A stretch of 64,000 bases of DNA. Origin: Escherichia coli. Its GTDB lineage: Bacteria > Pseudomonadota > Gammaproteobacteria > Enterobacterales > Enterobacteriaceae. Below, in pieces: positions 1 through 27,890 of the stretch. The position numbers and the translations under genes are program-made. Position 1 is the first letter of the stretch; each line of letters opens with the position of its first letter. The notes under the pieces are model-generated. The model did not search any database and was not told the origin of the DNA. It saw only the letters and a list, made by a program, of their open reading frames with translations. The stretch lies in the NCBI RefSeq assembly GCF_044324875.1, contig NZ_CP172185.1; one strand, written 5' to 3'.

Positions 1-1725
<1,725 letters not shown>

Positions 1726-1793: not shown

Positions 1794-3002
1794 ATGAACG
1801 ACACCGTTTTAAACGTAATCCCGGTGCCTGTACGCACTTGGGTGGCTATAGCAGCGCTCGGTATCAGTGCATTTTCGATTGTGACCAGCGAGCTTGCGCC
1901 TGTTGGCATGCTTAGTATGCTAGCAAAGGACCTGAACCAGACTGAATCGGACACGGACCTTGTCGTGACTGCATACGGCTGGGTTGGGGCTCTGGCAGCA
2001 CTTTTGTCTGGATTGATACCAGCGAGAATTTCACGTAAGTCTTTGTTAGTGACTCTTATGGTAGTGTTTGCTTTGTCTTGTGTGGCGGCGACACAGTCAT
2101 CACTCGATGACCCTATTTATGGGGGCGCGTATGACAGGCGCTTTAGCACATGGTGCTTTCTGGGCTTTGATTGGAGCAGTGGCTTCACAGCTTGTTCCGG
2201 CTGAAAAACTAGGACTGGCCACCTCAGTTATTTTTGGCGGCGTTTCGGCTGCCAGCGTTCTGGGTGTGCCACTGTCGAGTTTTATTGCGGATATGGCCGG
2301 GTGGCGGAGTGCGTTTACGGCGATTTCTCTGCTGTCACTTGCCGCCGCCTGTGCTCTATTCTGGACGCTCCCCACACTGACGGTGCCACAACCACTGAGG
2401 CTGCGTGTTTACTACGGGATATTCAAAAACCCGGTGCTCCTTTCCCTCTATGGTGCCACTGCCTGTATTATTTCGGCTCATTTTGCGGCATTCACTTACC
2501 TCCAACCACTACTGACGAAGACTCAGGAAGTACCGACGGCTTCGATTTCTGGCCTACTGCTGATGTCCGGGCTCTCCGGTCTGGCCGGAAATATCATTGC
2601 CGGAAAGCTGATCGACCGTCATATCAAAGGGCTGATTTTCGCTTCACTGCTCCTGAGCGCAGGTGCGCTCGGCATACTTGGTATGAGGAGCGCTGCACCA
2701 CTGCCTTTCTGGTTCACAGGCATACTGCTCGCAGTTTGGGGCGCGGGTATCGCCATTGTATTCGTTGGGTTGCAGACAGGTTGCTCCGTAGCGCCGGGGA
2801 TGCTGTACAACCGGCGTCAGCCATTTACGTTACAATTTTTAACGCAGCGATCGGCACCGGTGCGCTTGTGGGAGGCCAGGTATTAGCCGTAAAAGGTATT
2901 CAGGGTATGGCCTTACTTGCTGCGGGCATCATTGCATGCAGCATAGCTCTGGTCGCAATGCTGAAAAGCCCCGCGAATAAGCTCAGGCCTGAAAGGTCGT
3001 GA
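1794..3002 (+). pseudogene. MFS-type efflux transporter gene disrupted by two apparent frameshifts
   Basis: Three overlapping ORFs (1722..2204, 2068..2886, 2301..3002) in alternating frames each encode hydrophobic MFS-like segments; frame switches near 2100 and near 2815. Confidence 0.6.
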
Positions 3003-3370
3003 CGAATTCAAAAACGCATTAACCGACAGTAATTAAATGAGAGGGACGTGTCAGAAGAGGCTTCCCCTTATTTTATACGTCCAGTTCGGTAAAGAGTATT
3101 AGCCCACAGGACGAGGCTTATCCGAAACTACAACTCTGAAGGATTTAGTTAATCGCTTTAGAATTTCCAACTTCCGTTCCTCGCTCACAGCAGACCTTAA
3201 GATCTAGGAGGGAGTCCGCTCAGTGCCATGGGCGGACCTTAAGCTTCAGTAATTTGATTAGCACAATCCCTATGATAAATAGACTGGCCCCCTGAATCTC
3301 CAGACAACCAGTATCACTTAAATAAGTGATAGTCTTAATACTAGTTTTTAGACTAGTCATTGGAGAACAG

Positions 3371-3736
3371 ATGATTGATGTCTTAGGGCCGGAGAAACGC
3401 AGACGGCGTACCACACAGGAAAAGATCGCAATTGTTCAGCAGAGCTTTGAACCGGGGATGACGGTCTCCCTCGTTGCCCGGCAACATGGTGTAGCAGCCA
3501 GCCAGTTATTTCTCTGGCGTAAGCAATACCAGGAAGGAAGTCTTACTGCTGTCGCCGCCGGAGAACAGGTTGTTCCTGCCTCTGAACTTGCTGCCGCCAT
3601 GAAGCAGATTAAAGAACTCCAGCGCCTGCTCGGCAAGAAAACGATGGAAAATGAACTCCTCAAAGAAGCCGTTGAATATGGACGGGCAAAAAAGTGGATA
3701 GCGCACGCGCCCTTATTGCCCGGGGATGGGGAGTAA
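3371..3736 (+). CDS. insC: IS2 transposase OrfA (InsC)
   Basis: 121-aa product [41 protein letters not shown]... matches IS2 InsC. Confidence 0.9.
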
Positions 3737-4599
3737 GCTTAGTCAGCCGTTGTCTCCGGGTCTCACGTGCGCAACTGCATGCCATGGCCCGTCGGTCGAA
3801 GGACTGGCAGGATCGTCGGTGCAAGCGCAAGCCTGATGATACTGACGCGCTGGCCCGTATCCATACCGTTATCGGCGATCTGCCCACCTATGGTTATCGT
3901 CGGGTATGGGCACTGCTGCGCAGACAATCAGAAACTGACGACATGGCGGTGATCAATGCCAAACGCGTATACCGCATCATGCGTCAGAATGCGCTGCTGC
4001 TTGAGCGTAAACCGGAAATACCGCCATCGAAGCGGGCGCATACAGGGAAAGTGGCCGTTGGAGAAAGTAACCAGCGGTGGTGCTCTGACGGCTTCGAGTT
4101 CAGCTGTGATAACGGTGAAAAACTGCGGGTCACGTTCGCTCTGGACTGTTGCGATCGCGAGGCACTTTACTGGGCGGCCAGTAACGGTGGATATGACAGT
4201 GAAACCGTGCAGGACGTCATGCTGGGTGCCGTGGAGCGTCGTTTCGGTAACAGCCTGCCGACATCCCCAGTTGAGTGGCTGACAGACAACGGTTCAGCCT
4301 ACCGTTCTTATCAGACGCGTCAGTTCGCCAGAATGGTAGGACTGGAGCCTAAACATACGGCGGTACGTAGCCCGGAAAGCAACGGGATGGCAGAGAGCTT
4401 CGTGAAAACGATGAAGCGCGATTACATCAGCATCATGCCGAAACCCGACGGGTTAACAGCGGTAAAGAACCTTGCGGAGGCCTTCGAACATTACAACGAA
4501 TGGCATCCGCATAGTGCACTGGGGTATCGTTCGCCACGGGAATATCTGCGGCGGCGAACCAGTAATGGGTTAAGTGATAAAAAGTGTATGGAAATATAG
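3694..4599 (+). CDS. insD: IS2 transposase OrfB (InsD), DDE integrase core
   Basis: 301-aa ORF overlapping insC in a different frame (programmed frameshift arrangement); sequence matches IS2 InsD. Confidence 0.9.
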
Positions 4600-4610
4600 G
4601 GGCCAATCCA

Positions 4611-4967
4611 ATTGCACTGTTTCGAGGCTATCCGGCGACGATAAGAACTGACCAGGGGCCGGAGTTCACTTGCCGTGCACTGGATCAATGGGCCTTTGAG
4701 CATGGTGTTGAGTTGCGCTTAATCCAGCCGGGCAAGCCAACGCAGAACGGATTTATTGAGAGCTTTAACGGACGATTTCGCGATGAATGTTTGAATGAGC
4801 TCTGGTTCAGCGATATCGTTCATGCCAGGAAAATTATTAATGACTGGCGGCAGGATTATAACGAATGCCGCCCGCACTCCACGCTGAATTATCAGACACT
4901 GTCTGAATTTGCAGCGGGCTGGAGAAAGGGTCATTCTGAGAATGAAGATTCCGACGTTACTAACTGA
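4611..4967 (+). pseudogene. C-terminal remnant of an IS3-family transposase (OrfB), 5' part absent or replaced by IS2
   Basis: Frame continuing from the IS2 right end encodes ...[58 protein letters not shown]...RPHSTLNY, the conserved C-terminal part of an IS3-family DDE transposase. Confidence 0.7.
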
Positions 4968-4980
4968 GTGTTGTATCTAA

Positions 4981-5646
4981 TCGTGGGGGCAGGTCACAGC
5001 TATACGGACACGGTCAAATAGAGCACTTGCTATAACTGATCTTAAACATCCTAAATTTGATGTTAGAGTTCAGATACATAGTTCTGCCGCAAGGTATGCA
5101 GATAAGTTAGCTGCTGAAATAGTTTCAGCATATTATGATAACTCTGAGCTGGCATATGAAAGCGATTCTCCGTTTCAATTTGGTGTTATTCGAGTTCCTC
5201 GTAACGCTACTCACTTTGAGCATTCATTATATGAAAAGTACTCAGGACTTAATAAGTTCGAGGCTCCTTTTGCTGAGGCTTTAGATAGGTCTGGTTACCC
5301 TTGGCACAGAAACCTGAGCAGTGGCGGTTTTCATATCCCACTATTGACAGAGGGTGATACAAGCTCATTTTATCCAGACTTTTTAGTATGGAAGTCAGAC
5401 CTTGTCTATTGCCTTGATACCAAGGGGGGCCATCTATTGACTGCTGCCGTAGCGCGCAAGCTTTTTAATATTCATGAAGATGGTCGGAGTAAGATTCTAG
5501 TGAGATTTATCACAGAAGGAAAGCAGACAGAGCTGCGCGGCAAAGCAACAAAGGGAGGATATACTGTATGGAAAATGAAATCTGGGCATCCTACCCCAAT
5601 TTATGTGGCGGATTTAGACAAAGCTGTTAGGGAATGTCTAAAATAG
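4981..5646 (+). pseudogene. 3' fragment of a gene of unknown function with a PD-(D/E)xK-like motif; no in-frame start for its first ~120 codons
   Basis: Frame is open from the stop at 4978..4980 to 5646 but has no ATG/GTG/TTG until 5344; translation contains YPDFLVWKSDLVYCLDTKG (PD...DxK spacing typical of restriction-endonuclease-fold nucleases). Lies immediately after the IS3-family remnant. Confidence 0.4.
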
Positions 5647-5787
5647 CGAAGCCATAGCATAGAATTTTTAATGGCATTATGATCAGGACATAAAGGACTT
5701 CATGCAGGGAAAAAATATCCCAAAAGAAACTGGTCATGTCAGCACACCAAAGGATCCTCGCCGGATCCTTTGGTTTTTCTCAGCCAC

Positions 5788-5830
5788 AATCGCTTAACGT
5801 GAGTTTTCGTTCCACTGAGCGTCAGACCCC
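5788..5830. other. 43-bp segment nearly identical to the region just upstream of the ColE1/pMB1-type replication origin RNAs
   Basis: AATCGCTTAACGTGAGTTTTCGTTCCACTGAGCGTCAGACCCC differs at one position from the pBR322/pUC sequence AATCCCTTAACGTGAGTTTTCGTTCCACTGAGCGTCAGACCCC as I recall it; flanks diverge. Confidence 0.4.
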
Positions 5831-5905
5831 TATAAACACCTTAGTGAAGTCATCCTCGCAGGTAAGGCAACACATCCGTAAGGTATTTGGCCAAATCAAA
5901 TACAA

Positions 5906-6901
5906 CTAGATTGACTCGCGGGGAAGCCAGGGACTCTCAACTATCACTTTATCCCGGTGGGTGTCACCATTGATAATGTGCAGTGTACTTAAGCGCCCAA
6001 TTTCATAATGCGGTAGCTGGACCGTGGATAATGGGGGTAAAAATAAGTTTCCAATGCCTACAAGATTGTCATAGCCAAGAACGGCAATATCCTGTGGGAT
6101 TCTGATACCCTGCGTTAACAATGTTTGATACACCATAAATGCAATACGATCGTTACCACAGATGACCGAATCAAATCGCGGTTTCCCCTGTTCGATATGC
6201 GCCAGCAACATCTCCGGAATATCTCGGTAGTGCTCATCGCCGAATTGCATATAGCAGTGCTCAAGCGTATCAGGATCGATACTGGCTTCCCTGCAGGCGC
6301 GATCAAGCCCACGACGACGACGACGCGTCGCCAGATGGTTGACGGGTAAATGCAGGCATAGAGGGCGGCTGTATCCTGCTGCCAGCAGTGCCTGTACGGC
6401 CGTATACTGGCCATGTTCATCGTCAGGTATATAGCTGGCAACCGGCTCTCCCTTGTTCTCGCAGTTGGCCAGAACGCAAGGAAGCTCCAGTAACCGGGGA
6501 GGAATACTGACTTCACGCAGCCCCATGGTAGTAAAAATGATCCCCCCGGGTCGATGGGCGAGCAGCAGGTCGACAATATCGTCAGGATTATCATCGGTAA
6601 ACATATTCACCACAAAGCTGTTCCAGCCATACGCCCGCGCGGTTTCTTCAATAGACAGCGTGATTTCTACTGAAAAAGGAGTGGTGACCGTATCCAGCGC
6701 AAGCACACCAATCGTTTTGTTCCGGGTGCCAACACGACGAATCTGCTGGGCAGAAAGGTCTGGCACATAATTTAACTGCGTGATCGCCTCCTGCACCCGA
6801 GCCAGAGTCTCAGGCTTTACGCGTTTCGGGTCATTCAGCACCCGTGAAACCGTCATGAGCGATACATTGGCCAGTTTGGCCACATCCTTTAAAGACGCCA
6901 T
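5906..6901 (-). CDS. fosR: LacI/GalR-family repressor, CscR-like (FosR-like), divergent from the transporter operon
   Basis: 331 aa; N-terminal HTH MASLKDVAKLANVSLMTVSRVLN; strong similarity across its length to the E. coli sucrose repressor CscR from memory; gene symbol by recalled synteny with the fos locus. Confidence 0.75.
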   Translation of the reverse strand: MASLKDVAKLANVSLMTVSRVLNDPKRVKPETLARVQEAITQLNYVPDLSAQQIRRVGTRNKTIGVLALDTVTTPFSVEITLSIEETARAYGWNSFVVNMFTDDNPDDIVDLLLAHRPGGIIFTTMGLREVSIPPRLLELPCVLANCENKGEPVASYIPDDEHGQYTAVQALLAAGYSRPLCLHLPVNHLATRRRRRGLDRACREASIDPDTLEHCYMQFGDEHYRDIPEMLLAHIEQGKPRFDSVICGNDRIAFMVYQTLLTQGIRIPQDIAVLGYDNLVGIGNLFLPPLSTVQLPHYEIGRLSTLHIINGDTHRDKVIVESPWLPRESI

Positions 6902-7033
6902 AGTTTTCCATTATCTGAATGCATACACCCGGTAAGGTGTTGTGAGCAAATGCGAATGCCCTATTCTAGGCACGGACACCCAGGGTTATGCAGACCACTC
7001 TGATAAATTTGAGCTAGATCTCAACATTTCAAT

Positions 7034-7045
7034 GTTAACGTTAAC
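7034..7045. promoter_or_regulatory. Candidate LacI-family operator, perfect 12-bp palindrome centred on CG
   Basis: GTTAACGTTAAC is its own reverse complement; about 100 bp upstream of the transporter start, in the divergent fosR/fosT intergenic region. Confidence 0.4.
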
Positions 7046-7095
7046 TTTTGTGATTAACATCGACAAACAAATCAAAATCGAGTGTCCCCCCAAAA

Positions 7096-7109
7096 TGATA
7101 ACGTTACCA
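7096..7109. promoter_or_regulatory. Candidate LacI-family operator (TGATAACGTTACCA)
   Basis: Near-palindrome fitting the TGnAAnCGnTTnCA pattern of LacI/GalR operators; about 35 bp upstream of the transporter ATG at 7142. Confidence 0.4.
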
Positions 7110-7141
7110 TATTAGCATATCCTTCTTACGAGATTACGTAG

Positions 7142-8380
7142 ATGAAAAAACGGCCTACTCGAAGTTACATGCTGCTCAGCGCTCTGCTGTTCTTTTTCTT
7201 TGTGACCTGGTCCTCATCAAGTTCACTGCTCTCAATCTGGCTTCACCAGGAAGTGGGGCTAAAAGCATCGGAAACCGGCATTATTTTTTCAGTATTATCC
7301 GTCTCCGCGCTCTTCGCGCAGGTCTGTTATGGCTTTATTCAGGACCGACTTGGTCTGCGCAAACATTTGTTATGGTTTATCACCGCGTTGTTGATCCTCT
7401 CCGGCCCGGCTTATCTGCTTTTTAGTTATTTGCTGAGCGTTAATATTCTGCTGGGCAGCGTATTCGGGGGCTTATTTATCGGGCTGACGTTTAATGGGGG
7501 TATCGGCGTTCTGGAGTCCTATACCGAGCGCGTCGCGCGTCAAAGTACCTTTGAGTTTGGGCGGGCACGCATGTGGGGGTCTCTGGGCTGGGCAGTTGCC
7601 ACGTTTTTTGCCGGGTTACTGTTTAATATCAACCCTGACCTTAACTTCCTGGTGGCTTCATGCTCAGGGTTAATCTTCTTCTGCCTCCTGGCCCGATTAA
7701 AGGTGGCCGCGCCGGCAAGCATGGAGAAACTCGAAATTGGCGCTAAAAAAGTTTCTCTGGAAGACGCCCTGCGTCTGCTTACTCTGCCGCGCTTCTGGGC
7801 ACTGATATTCTTCGTGGTCGGAACCTGCATTTACGGCGTATACGATCAGCAATTCCCGGTCTATTTCTCATCACAGTTCCCGACATTACGCGAAGGGAAC
7901 GAGATGTTTGGCTATTTAAACTCTTTCCAGGTCTTTCTCGAGGCCGCAGGTATGTTTTGTGCGCCGTGGCTGGTTAATCGCATTGGTGCTAAAAATGGTC
8001 TGATATTCGCAGGAATGGTGATGGCGCTGCGCATGATTACTTCAGGGCTGGTGGAAGGCCCCCTGCTTATCTCCATTACCAAACTGCTTCACGCGGTCGA
8101 ACTGCCAATATTGTTAGTCGCCATATTTAAATACAACAGTCTGAATTTCGACAAACGTCTCTCCTCCACCATTTATCTGGTGGGATTTGCCTGCACCAGC
8201 TCCGTCATTGGTACCGTATTGTCCCCGCTGGCAGGCTTTAGCTATGAGAGATTTGGCTTCGCCCAATCCTATCTGATCATGGGCATCATGGTGTTCAGCA
8301 CCACGTTTATTTCCATTTTCCTTTTGCGCTCAACTAAATCCTCATCTGAGCCATCTTTTCTGCAGCAAAAAGCTGTGTAA
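7142..8380 (+). CDS. fosT: Oligosaccharide:H+ symporter, MFS (LacY/CscB-like)
   Basis: 412 aa, 12-TM hydrophobic profile, similar to CscB sucrose permease (…FQVFLEA…, …KLLHAVELP…); first gene of a tightly spaced operon. Confidence 0.8.
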   Translation: MKKRPTRSYMLLSALLFFFFVTWSSSSSLLSIWLHQEVGLKASETGIIFSVLSVSALFAQVCYGFIQDRLGLRKHLLWFITALLILSGPAYLLFSYLLSVNILLGSVFGGLFIGLTFNGGIGVLESYTERVARQSTFEFGRARMWGSLGWAVATFFAGLLFNINPDLNFLVASCSGLIFFCLLARLKVAAPASMEKLEIGAKKVSLEDALRLLTLPRFWALIFFVVGTCIYGVYDQQFPVYFSSQFPTLREGNEMFGYLNSFQVFLEAAGMFCAPWLVNRIGAKNGLIFAGMVMALRMITSGLVEGPLLISITKLLHAVELPILLVAIFKYNSLNFDKRLSSTIYLVGFACTSSVIGTVLSPLAGFSYERFGFAQSYLIMGIMVFSTTFISIFLLRSTKSSSEPSFLQQKAV

Positions 8381-8399: not shown

Positions 8400-9833
8400 A
8401 TGACATCCTTATTAGAACAGGCTGAACAGGTGCTTGAAAAAGCACAATCCGGGATTAATCCGCGCTGGTATCCGCGCTATCACCTCGCCCCTCGCGCAGG
8501 CTGGATGAATGATCCTAATGGCCTGGTATGGTTTGACGGCTGGTATCACGCCTTTTATCAACACCATCCCTACTCCCCGAAATGGGGTCCGATGCACTGG
8601 GGGCACGCCCGAAGCAAAGATCTGGTGCATTGGGAACATTTGCCCGTCGCGCTAGCGCCGGAAGGCCCGGCGGACAAAGACGGCTGTTTCTCAGGTTCCG
8701 CCGTGGTGGACGGCGATACGCTGGCGCTCATCTATACCGGACATAAATTTCACGGCCCGTCGGACACTGACGACAACCTCTACCAGGTGCAGTGTCTGGC
8801 GACCAGTCGTGACGGCATCCATTTTGAACGGCACGGCAAGGTGATTGATACACCGCCCGGACTGCATCACTTTCGCGATCCGAAGGTGTGGCGCGAAGGT
8901 GAGTTCTGGTACATGGTTGTCGGTTCCCGCGTGGAAAATACCGGTCAGGTGCGCCTGTACCGTTCCACCGATCTCCGCGAATGGCATGACGAAGGTATTT
9001 TCGCCGAGGCTGATGAAGGCAAGGGCTTTATGTGGGAATGCCCGGATTTCTTCCCCCTGGGAGAGAAGCGTGTCCTGATGTTCTCGCCGCAGGGCATGGC
9101 GGCGGAAGGGTATCACTATCGCAACCTGTTCCAGAGCGGTTATTTACTTGGGGACTGGCAGCCAGGTCAACCGTTCACCCACAGCGGACAATTTACTGAG
9201 CTGGACCACGGCCACGACTTTTATGCCCCGCAGAGTTTCCTGACCCCGGATGGCCGACGCATTGTCATCGGGTGGCTGGATATGTGGGAATCATCGATGC
9301 CCGAACAGCAGGATGGCTGGGCCGGAATGCTCTCGCTTCCTCGCGAATTAAGCCTTGTCGATGGTCGTGTGAGAATGAAACCTGCTGCCGAAGTGACCGC
9401 GCTGCGTGGCAGCTATTATCCCACGCCCGTCCGCTGTCTGAACAATCAGAACGTCCTTGTCGCGGCAAATGCCGACGCGGTCGAAGTTCAGTTGGCATGG
9501 GATTTGAGCGCATCGACGGCTGAACAGTTTGGTATCGCGTTGGGCGACGGGTTGAGAATTTACGTCGATGATCAGGCTGGGCGTCTGGTGGTGGAGCGCC
9601 GCTATCCGGAATATTCGCTGGAAGGCACTCGCAGTATTCCGCTTCCAGCAGACAGCGTTCTGTCACTGCGAATTTTTATTGACCGCTCATCGGTGGAAGT
9701 TTTTGTTAACGATGGTGACGCTTGCTTAAGCAGTCGTATTTATCCGCAGCCGGGCGAGCGTGATATTTCATTGTTTGCAAATCTGGGGAAGGCCTCATTA
9801 TACGATGCGGGATACTGGTCTTTAGATAAATAA
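8400..9833 (+). CDS. fosGH1: GH32 beta-fructofuranosidase / sucrose-6-phosphate hydrolase-like, no signal peptide (cytoplasmic)
   Basis: 477 aa with GH32 motifs WMNDPNGL, FRDPKV and WECPD; 19 bp after fosT. Confidence 0.8.
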   Translation: MTSLLEQAEQVLEKAQSGINPRWYPRYHLAPRAGWMNDPNGLVWFDGWYHAFYQHHPYSPKWGPMHWGHARSKDLVHWEHLPVALAPEGPADKDGCFSGSAVVDGDTLALIYTGHKFHGPSDTDDNLYQVQCLATSRDGIHFERHGKVIDTPPGLHHFRDPKVWREGEFWYMVVGSRVENTGQVRLYRSTDLREWHDEGIFAEADEGKGFMWECPDFFPLGEKRVLMFSPQGMAAEGYHYRNLFQSGYLLGDWQPGQPFTHSGQFTELDHGHDFYAPQSFLTPDGRRIVIGWLDMWESSMPEQQDGWAGMLSLPRELSLVDGRVRMKPAAEVTALRGSYYPTPVRCLNNQNVLVAANADAVEVQLAWDLSASTAEQFGIALGDGLRIYVDDQAGRLVVERRYPEYSLEGTRSIPLPADSVLSLRIFIDRSSVEVFVNDGDACLSSRIYPQPGERDISLFANLGKASLYDAGYWSLDK

Positions 9834-27795: not shown

Positions 27796-27890
27796 TGGCG
27801 GAAGATCACAGGAGTCGAACCTGCCCGGGACCGCTGGCGGCCCCAACTGGATTTGAAGTCCAGCCGCCTCACCGGAGACGACGATCTTCC
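27796..27890 (-). tRNA. selC: tRNA-Sec (selenocysteine), anticodon UCA
   Basis: Minus-strand sequence GGAAGATCGTCGTCTCCGGTGAGGCGGCTGGACTTCAAATCCAGTTGGGGCCGCCAGCGGTCCCGGGCAGGTTCGACTCCTGTGATCTTCCGCCA matches E. coli selC; long variable arm. Confidence 0.95.

Follow-up and report, generated by a model that had tools for sequence, protein, structure and literature searches.

A stretch of 277 bp (3003-3279) separates a broken transporter gene from an insertion sequence in a 64,000-nucleotide piece of an Escherichia coli genome (hereafter the window). The initial annotation left it unassigned, which raises the question of what this DNA is and whether it does anything. The limits drawn there were confirmed: TGA at 3000-3002 closes the MFS transporter pseudogene, and an IS2-group element, labelled ISEc27 in APEC BEN2908, begins at 3280 with its left inverted repeat, TAGACTGGCCCC. 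The segment was likewise found to lack an IS terminus and any plus-strand open reading frame (ORF) of at least 60 aa, and it contains none of even 30 aa or more on this strand. The sole overlapping ORF, of 64 aa, is on the minus strand (3220-3414) and continues into the IS end. The 277 bp are composite spacer DNA and not a gene, the left 165 bp being the 3′ flank of the MFS pseudogene and the right 112 bp a cassette junction (Table 1).

As a whole, the segment was present at 99.6 to 100% identity in only five complete E. coli genomes. The window was 99.98% identical to BEN2908 over 3109-8280, and one source named the product of the MFS pseudogene 'truncated Aec54' (AGI-3-type selC island). From this identity, the selC gene and the name 'truncated Aec54', we therefore took the window to be an AGI-3-type selC island of E. 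coli. A plasmid origin of the whole 277 bp was rejected for want of a near plasmid match, as was a phage origin, the full query having no phage match. A tRNA or tmRNA remnant at 3003-3279 was discarded as well, ARAGORN finding only selC (27796-27890). The same holds for a small ORF behind AGGAGG at 3206, where the frames, read by eye, have 4 to 9 codons and are not conserved in other copies of the repeat described below.

Table 1. Features of the segment at 3003-3279 and its surroundings (window positions unless a locus is named)
Feature	Position	Strand	Basis or remark
MFS transporter pseudogene, frameshifted	1795..3002	+	ORFs; RefSeq 'MFS transporter, frameshifted' in Z247, BEN2908
Private 3′ flank of MFS pseudogene	3003..3167	+	BLAST, flank comparison
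GGACGAGG, 8-bp target duplicated by IS66-family insertion in BEN2908	3108..3115	.	Junction sequences, BLAST overlap
Complete copy of ~77-bp cassette-junction repeat	3168..3244	+	cmsearch, covariance model R1: 67 bits, E 2e-15
Module 1, arms TTCCGTT/AGCAGAC, spacer CCTCGCTCAC	3172..3195	+	Alignment, pair counts
Spacer 1 TCGCTCAC, breakpoint zone 1	3181..3188	+	BLAST, breakpoint analysis
First GACCTTAAG	3193..3201	+	Last 3 bases of module 1 3′ arm plus CTTAAG
Module 2, 9-bp arms GTCCGCTCA/TGGGCGGAC, 6-bp spacer GTGCCA	3214..3237	+	Folding, covariation at spacer-proximal pairs
Spacer 2 GTGCCA, breakpoint zone 2	3223..3228	+	BLAST, breakpoint analysis
Second GACCTTAAG	3235..3243	+	Last 3 bases of module 2 3′ arm plus CTTAAG
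First 42 bp of 505-aa cassette leader	3238..3279	+	Uninterrupted in EC1515 (L003 5001-5324)
ISEc27 (IS2 group), truncating insertion	3280..4611	+	IR at 3280, BEN2908 annotation
Loci with recombinase hairpins	L149 5990-6700; L150, L221, L222, L223, L012; L154-L193		

Judged by its relatives in the databases, the left part is 3′ flanking DNA private to the MFS pseudogene. Only five E. coli genomes and BEN2908 matched 3003-3180, and 3003-3167 had no plasmid or phage match and no relatives beyond six E. coli islands. The nearest orthologous MFS genes found, with products of 378 aa and 309 aa, showed 71 to 73% nucleotide identity and aligned only up to about 2883-2971 of the window. Their 3′ flanks were unrelated, so a 3′ UTR shared with intact transporter orthologues, an outcome considered at the outset, was not seen; the homology is confined to the coding region. 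The RNA fold of 3003-3167 had a modest z-score of -2.3, with possible weak hairpins. The window carries GGACGAGG uninterrupted, and BEN2908 has otherwise the same sequence with an IS66-family element there. Farther upstream, IS100 istA (157-1179, minus strand) truncates the 5′ part of an aldo/keto reductase gene, of which the fragment 1336-1725 is left; in Z247 this gene extends further, with zinc-ribbon and Gp2-family genes before it.

The right part contains a copy of a repeat, which was first delimited by sensitive BLAST: diverged matches to 3163-3279 turned up in numerous unrelated settings, among them IncF plasmids of Enterobacter, Citrobacter and Kosakonia, where the plasmid matches (78%) were limited to the repeat. 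We aligned 91 copies, including that of the window (alignment A1), and built the covariance model R1. The consensus, AAyGTCCGCTyy-TCGCTCAC-AGCGGACCTT-(~15 nt)-GTCCGCTyc-GTGCCA-grAGCGGACrTT, comprises two inverted-repeat modules with the common arms GTCCGCT/AGCGGAC and the conserved spacers TCGCTCAC and GTGCCA. The arms of module 1 (GTCCGCT/AGCGGAC) enclose yyTCGCTCAC, and those of module 2 (GTCCGCTyc/grAGCGGAC) enclose the 6-bp GTGCCA. The window copy spans model positions 1 to 77 with both spacers exact; its module 1 arms are slightly degenerate relative to the consensus, and module 2 is its sole robust hairpin. With R1 and filters off, no second copy was found in window positions 1-45000.

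This anatomy accounts for a repeated motif that had been noticed earlier. GACCTTAAG indeed occurs exactly twice in the 64-kb window, where shuffling gave an expectation of 0.24 matches and 3 of 100 shuffles reached two matches anywhere. The similarity in fact covers 12 nt (GCrGACCTTAAG), and the two copies lie 42 nt apart. The pair is more than chance: it consists of the 3′ arms of the two related modules and the bases that follow them. Partial and altered forms of the repeat were also seen. In L219 (~1130-1160), an MFS orthologue is followed, ~130 nt after its stop codon, by the module-2-like half site GGTCCGCCGTGAGCCAGGAGCGGAC, and in L032 (~9108-9160) and L068 (~300-340), a left repeat half is followed by tandem GCCAGCC-type heptamers instead of module 2.

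Searches with an 18-nt core retrieved 93 genome stretches, nearly all from Enterobacterales and with several copies per genome, as well as 43 viral contigs. A 72-nt consensus had matches in 1606 of the 5426 complete E. coli genomes (~30%), in 1 to 5 places each and never under an annotated RefSeq feature, and it also matched the P2-like phages 899 and GMG73. The repeat is sharply bounded, its flanks being unrelated on both sides, and is confined to prophages, islands and cassette arrays. Chromosomal arrays of 3 to 6 copies exist in Citrobacter, Enterobacter, Rahnella and other genera, and between their copies lie single or paired genes of unrelated functions in either orientation. All copies were on the same strand in each of the multi-copy loci examined (33/33), with a median spacing of 1.3 kb. 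Genes of the repeat-bearing islands encode dGTPase, type I R-M, DarTG and dynamin-like proteins, and the repeat marks the borders of variable genes in defence hotspots, namely the P2 Z/fun slot, Rac/Qin-type prophages and islands. It is thus widespread in E. coli and other Enterobacterales, yet unannotated and absent from Rfam. In our judgement, the repeat is fairly probably a DNA recombination site of an integron-like cassette system, of which the window copy would be a solitary relic.

Could the repeat instead have arrived by transposition, as a MITE or a degraded IS end? Its inverted termini, AACGTCCGCT...AGCGGACGTT, show covariation at positions 4 and 72, there is a longer relative that encodes an enzyme, and IS elements cluster around it, all of which would suit such an origin. 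However, whichever length (3-9 bp) and boundary was tested, no more than 2 of 101 copies had a target-site duplication, copies within one genome are diverged and not near-identical, and the outer arms move with the neighbouring cassettes and not with the middle piece. The repeat is also unlike the ISEc27, IS66 and IS3 ends of the same loci. We consider transposition a highly improbable origin. The initial suggestion of a degraded element end fails in that no IS terminus is present but keeps some of its sense, since the right-hand 110 bp represent the junction of a mobile cassette, the body of which would have been removed by ISEc27. As a separate observation, the IS elements lie at or beside repeat copies in several loci (window 3279/3280 and 3108-3115; L001 ~6278; L008 ~3080; L003 ~6975). 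Strain AH21 has an IS3 7 bp after a repeat copy, and the TCGCT/CAC spacer of the next copy is interrupted by an IS30-family element in EC1515 and strain 127.

The genes next to the repeat tend to point their 3′ ends at it from both sides (91:50 and 88:49). This bias counts against a cassette site, as it also fits a neutral or terminator-like intergenic position, and it would suit an RNA or transcription signal, such as a small RNA, a 3′-UTR stabiliser or REP-like element, or a bidirectional terminator or insulator. The stable 9-bp hairpin of module 2 agrees with such a signal, as does the plus-strand RNA of 3181-3279, which folds a little better than its shuffled versions (z -1.8). However, the Rfam search proposed in the initial annotation gave no family match in the window up to E 10, and none was obtained at E<=1 in five loci with consensus-like copies. 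RNAalifold on the repeat alignment yielded only a trivial 3-pair stem and no consensus fold. Among the stem mismatches, G·U and A·C were about equally frequent (76 versus 61 in module 2, 25 versus 29 in module 1) without strand bias, and therefore gave no sign of selection for one folded strand. Hand-drawn two-hairpin and long-range pairings were indistinguishable, both being ~81% paired, and covariation was limited to the spacer-proximal pairs of module 2 and the terminal AAC/GTT pair. No T-run follows either hairpin, and 2800-3450 contains no plus-strand terminator-like site; the only such site there is weak, on the minus strand (3118-3101) and within chance expectation. Furthermore, the orientation of the repeat is fixed in arrays whereas that of the genes is mixed, and its copy number is low in each matching E. 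coli genome. A small RNA region, as suggested initially, is not supported, given the Rfam result, the indifference of array orientation to gene orientation and the absence of strand bias, and an RNA or transcription signal of any kind is improbable. The palindromes are best read as candidate double-stranded protein-binding sites, in keeping with a DNA recombination site.

The repeat copy in the window overlaps the start of the leader of a cassette gene for a 505-aa protein (Table 1). In intact loci (EC1515), the leader runs 225 bp further to the ATG of this gene. In Z247, ISCro1, with the target duplication TGATAAAC, lies 1 bp beyond the equivalent of window position 3279 and is followed by the same 505-aa gene. 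The uninterrupted leader in EC1515 and the gene after ISCro1 in Z247 therefore indicate that ISEc27 cut the leader in the window. Because the 5-bp target duplication expected of an IS2-group element is missing from ISEc27, which borders directly on an ISSen4 fragment (4611-4996, 386 bp; 99.5% identity to L008 424-809), the gene appears to have been lost in a later rearrangement, and the arrangement points to an IS-mediated deletion. We rejected the 100-aa ORF at 5344-5646 as the tail of the EC1515-type restriction endonuclease that lies downstream of the 505-aa gene, as megablast found no homology; by eye, this ORF resembles the C-terminal end of a restriction or helicase-type enzyme.

The 505-aa protein (WP_032147601; L003 5325-6842 in EC1515, also L005, L006, L007 and L001) matched only PHROG 13820 and had no Pfam or PADLOC match. 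With its leader, the gene was found in a P2-like prophage and a Rac-like prophage, where it follows the tail-fibre assembly gene and the DUF977 gene, respectively, and in genomic islands, where 'inovirus Gp2' genes are its neighbours. Hydrophobic segments occur at the N-terminus of this orphan protein, whose gene travels as a cassette bounded by the repeat. The gene is a candidate for phage defence or exclusion, and the MFS transporter itself may also have been cassette cargo. The window copy probably does nothing now, because it lacks a partner copy and no recombinase gene is close by. The segment would be a dead junction without coding or RNA function, recording that a phage-type cassette once lay 3′ of the MFS gene.

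The same borders were recognised in P2-like phages. In P2, fun(Z) is bordered by diverged half copies (21-bit and 13-bit with R1), one of module-2 type just after gene G and one of module-1 type before the F promoter. Phage 899 has a full copy (80 bits) and two half copies; from the tail-fibre assembly gene to the tail sheath gene, the order is half copy, gene, full copy, DUF3800 gene, half copy. Inverted repeats flank the Z/fun cassette of P2-like coliphages according to Nilsson, Karlsson and Haggard-Ljungquist (2004, Mol Biol Evol 21:1), as paraphrased in PMC8987985. As half copies bound fun(Z) in P2, the repeat at this locus is probably the one described there, in so far as the paraphrase conveys it: both have the same place and the same inferred role, bounding the variable cassette between G and FI. 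This cassette is bounded by full or half repeat copies in P2, phage 899 and one P2-like prophage, and the same cassette with the same borders as in the P2 Z/fun slot also occurs in bacterial islands. A literature search by sequence fragments, protein accessions and keywords returned no description of the repeat besides the paraphrased citation of Nilsson et al., and the Enterobacterales arrays, the two-spacer anatomy, the E. coli prevalence and an embedded small tyrosine recombinase were not found described.

Several loci contained, near the repeat, a 603-bp gene for a 200-aa protein annotated as 'site-specific integrase'; one representative is WP_001305361 of clone D i2, a strain that also carries repeat arrays. 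It matched Pfam Phage_integrase (2e-17), with only the catalytic domain detected and the catalytic residues read by eye. The protein fell below every NCBIfam cut-off, including those for IntI, XerC, XerD and FimB/E-type invertases, and scored 17.6 and 17.2 bits with integron-integrase models (cut-offs 435 and 265). No solved relative was found in the PDB by sequence. In six aligned loci, the recombinase unit starts inside the module-1 spacer, with TAAGGGAC directly after TCGCTCA, and ends just after the module-2 spacer (...CAGCCCT-GTGCCA), the outer arms and everything beyond being variable. The same framing was present in all 13 distinct Enterobacterales-type viral loci: GTGCCA lay downstream in each (GTGTCA in one), and the upstream TCGCTCA-type motif was exact in 6 of the 13 and had one or two changes in the rest. 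In the recombinase unit, a different hairpin takes the place of the module 2 5′ arm, which makes the site model untidy. The gene and the repeat copies always share one orientation. In three of the four independently sampled E. coli loci, arrays lay within 2.5 kb downstream of it, and the genes bracketed by the arrays at E. coli recombinase loci encode an anti-phage dGTPase, a CBS-domain protein and a TonB/ABC uptake set. The 77-bp repeat looks like a recombinase-less form of the recombinase unit.

The association is partial. The recombinase gene was found in 848 E. coli genomes, against about twice as many (1606) with the repeat, and the two occurred together within the examined flanks in 7 of 152 repeat-centred loci and ~10 of 43 viral recombinase loci; a strict one-to-one presence was rejected on the genome counts and the repeat-centred loci. 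P2 and phage 899 have repeat-bounded cassettes and no such recombinase in the stretches examined, and the gene was not found in the searched parts of the window. Two hairpins were seen around the recombinase gene: a perfect 12-bp inverted repeat in its leader, ACTCAAATCTCC-N9-GGAGATTTGAGT, which covers the ribosome-binding site and ends at the ATG, and a second one after the stop codon, CAGGGCTGC-AACA-GCAGCCCTG, which overlaps GTGCCA. Distant homologues from IMG/VR (L171, L172, L174; 60-66% identity) are followed by a different hairpin together with GGCCAG/GGCCAT-AAGCGGAT, which hints at related systems in other taxa that use site variants of their own.

Comparison of flanks placed the changes of homology between contexts in just two zones of the repeat, at its spacers. 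Position 3181, the first base of TCGCTCAC, is the exact start of homology to 38 other E. coli genomes, and 3181-3279 (99 bp) is present in 44. Homology to ECONIH1-type loci stops at 3228, the last base of GTGCCA, and that to Rac-like prophage copies of the 505-aa cassette starts at 3223, with another start at 3213. The 48 nt between the spacers are identical in three contexts with differing flanks on both sides. The backbones of P2, phage 899 and L005 part company directly after GTGCCA; for two copies of the 505-aa cassette, divergence begins after TCGCTCA. Among pairs sharing one flank, the break fell at model positions 4-32 or 55-64 in 14 of 15 and at position 74 in one, in a set that is small (15 informative pairs) and biased, as copies were gathered by an exact 18-mer covering zone 1.

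These breakpoints coincide with the longest identical stretches of the repeat, and homologous recombination would give the same pattern. Plain homologous recombination is the main rival explanation: the repeat would serve as a homology anchor only, genes would be swapped by RecA or phage Red/RecET-type recombinases, and the small recombinase would be a passenger. The occurrence of the repeat in many genomes and phages without the recombinase is consistent with this, and Rousset et al. invoked homologous exchange for P2 hotspots. However, a homology anchor leaves unexplained why two palindromic modules and two spacers are conserved across genera despite unrelated flanks, why copies share one strand in every array, and why, in every locus, these two spacer motifs enclose a co-oriented recombinase gene. 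We regard it as unlikely, though less so than the transposition and RNA readings.

For the recombination site that we prefer, the data suggest the following scheme. Each module would be a core-type site for the 200-aa recombinase, consisting of two arms plus an asymmetric overlap region. Through strand exchange in the spacers, cassettes would be excised, inserted and swapped, moving between P2-like and lambdoid prophages, genomic islands and plasmids. In the window, the body of the 505-aa gene would have been lost upon ISEc27 insertion and rearrangement of the region. It is possible, and we put it forward tentatively from the sequence comparisons, that the repeat and the 200-aa recombinase together form a functional, essentially undescribed cassette-exchange system of Enterobacterales, a second integron-like mechanism unrelated to IntI/attC. 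If so, single genes, many of them anti-phage, would be shuttled among the P2 Z/fun slot, lambdoid prophages, CP4-type islands, chromosomal arrays and plasmids. An action of the recombinase on the repeat would provide a concrete, testable mechanism for cassette turnover in defence hotspots, and the repeat would serve as a sequence tag by which new cargo genes could be found.

Three known systems resemble the repeat to different degrees. REP/BIME elements (REPIN) are short palindromic intergenic repeats present in hundreds of copies per genome in enterobacteria. The repeat is likewise palindromic, intergenic and often located after gene 3′ ends, but it occupies only 1 to 5 places in an E. coli genome, is absent from 70% of the genomes, and lacks a GTAG head; no RAYT transposase was seen. 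Xer-dependent dif modules are small gene modules on Acinetobacter plasmids, where pdif sites flank resistance genes; each is a core-type tyrosine-recombinase site whose two inverted arms are separated by a 6-bp spacer. The same 9-6-9 layout is seen in module 2. However, the arms GTCCGCTCC are unlike the XerC/XerD arms, the repeat sites are all direct whereas pdif sites alternate, and a dedicated small recombinase, far below the NCBIfam XerC and XerD cut-offs, would take the place of the host Xer proteins.

Integrons share more with the repeat: same-strand arrays of short structured sites around single unrelated genes, a tyrosine recombinase at the array, the termini AAC...GTT, and cargo that includes anti-phage and detoxification-type genes. 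In contrast to integrons, the recombinase here has 200 aa, reaches only ~17 bits with integron-integrase models and points the same way as the array, the sites have two modules and a strongly conserved sequence, and the cassette genes face either way. Relative to attC, the R''/R' boxes RYYYAAC...GTTRRRY were not found in the repeat, in which only AAC...GTT is conserved; its breaks lie in two spacers, at model positions 13-32 and 55-64, and not at G/TT, with 1 of 15 pairs breaking near the 3′ end; and its G·U and A·C counts, being about equal, showed no strand bias such as a folded bottom strand would lead one to expect. By analogy, integrons appear to be the closest functional counterpart of the repeat system, which stands outside them by its integrase and its crossover point.
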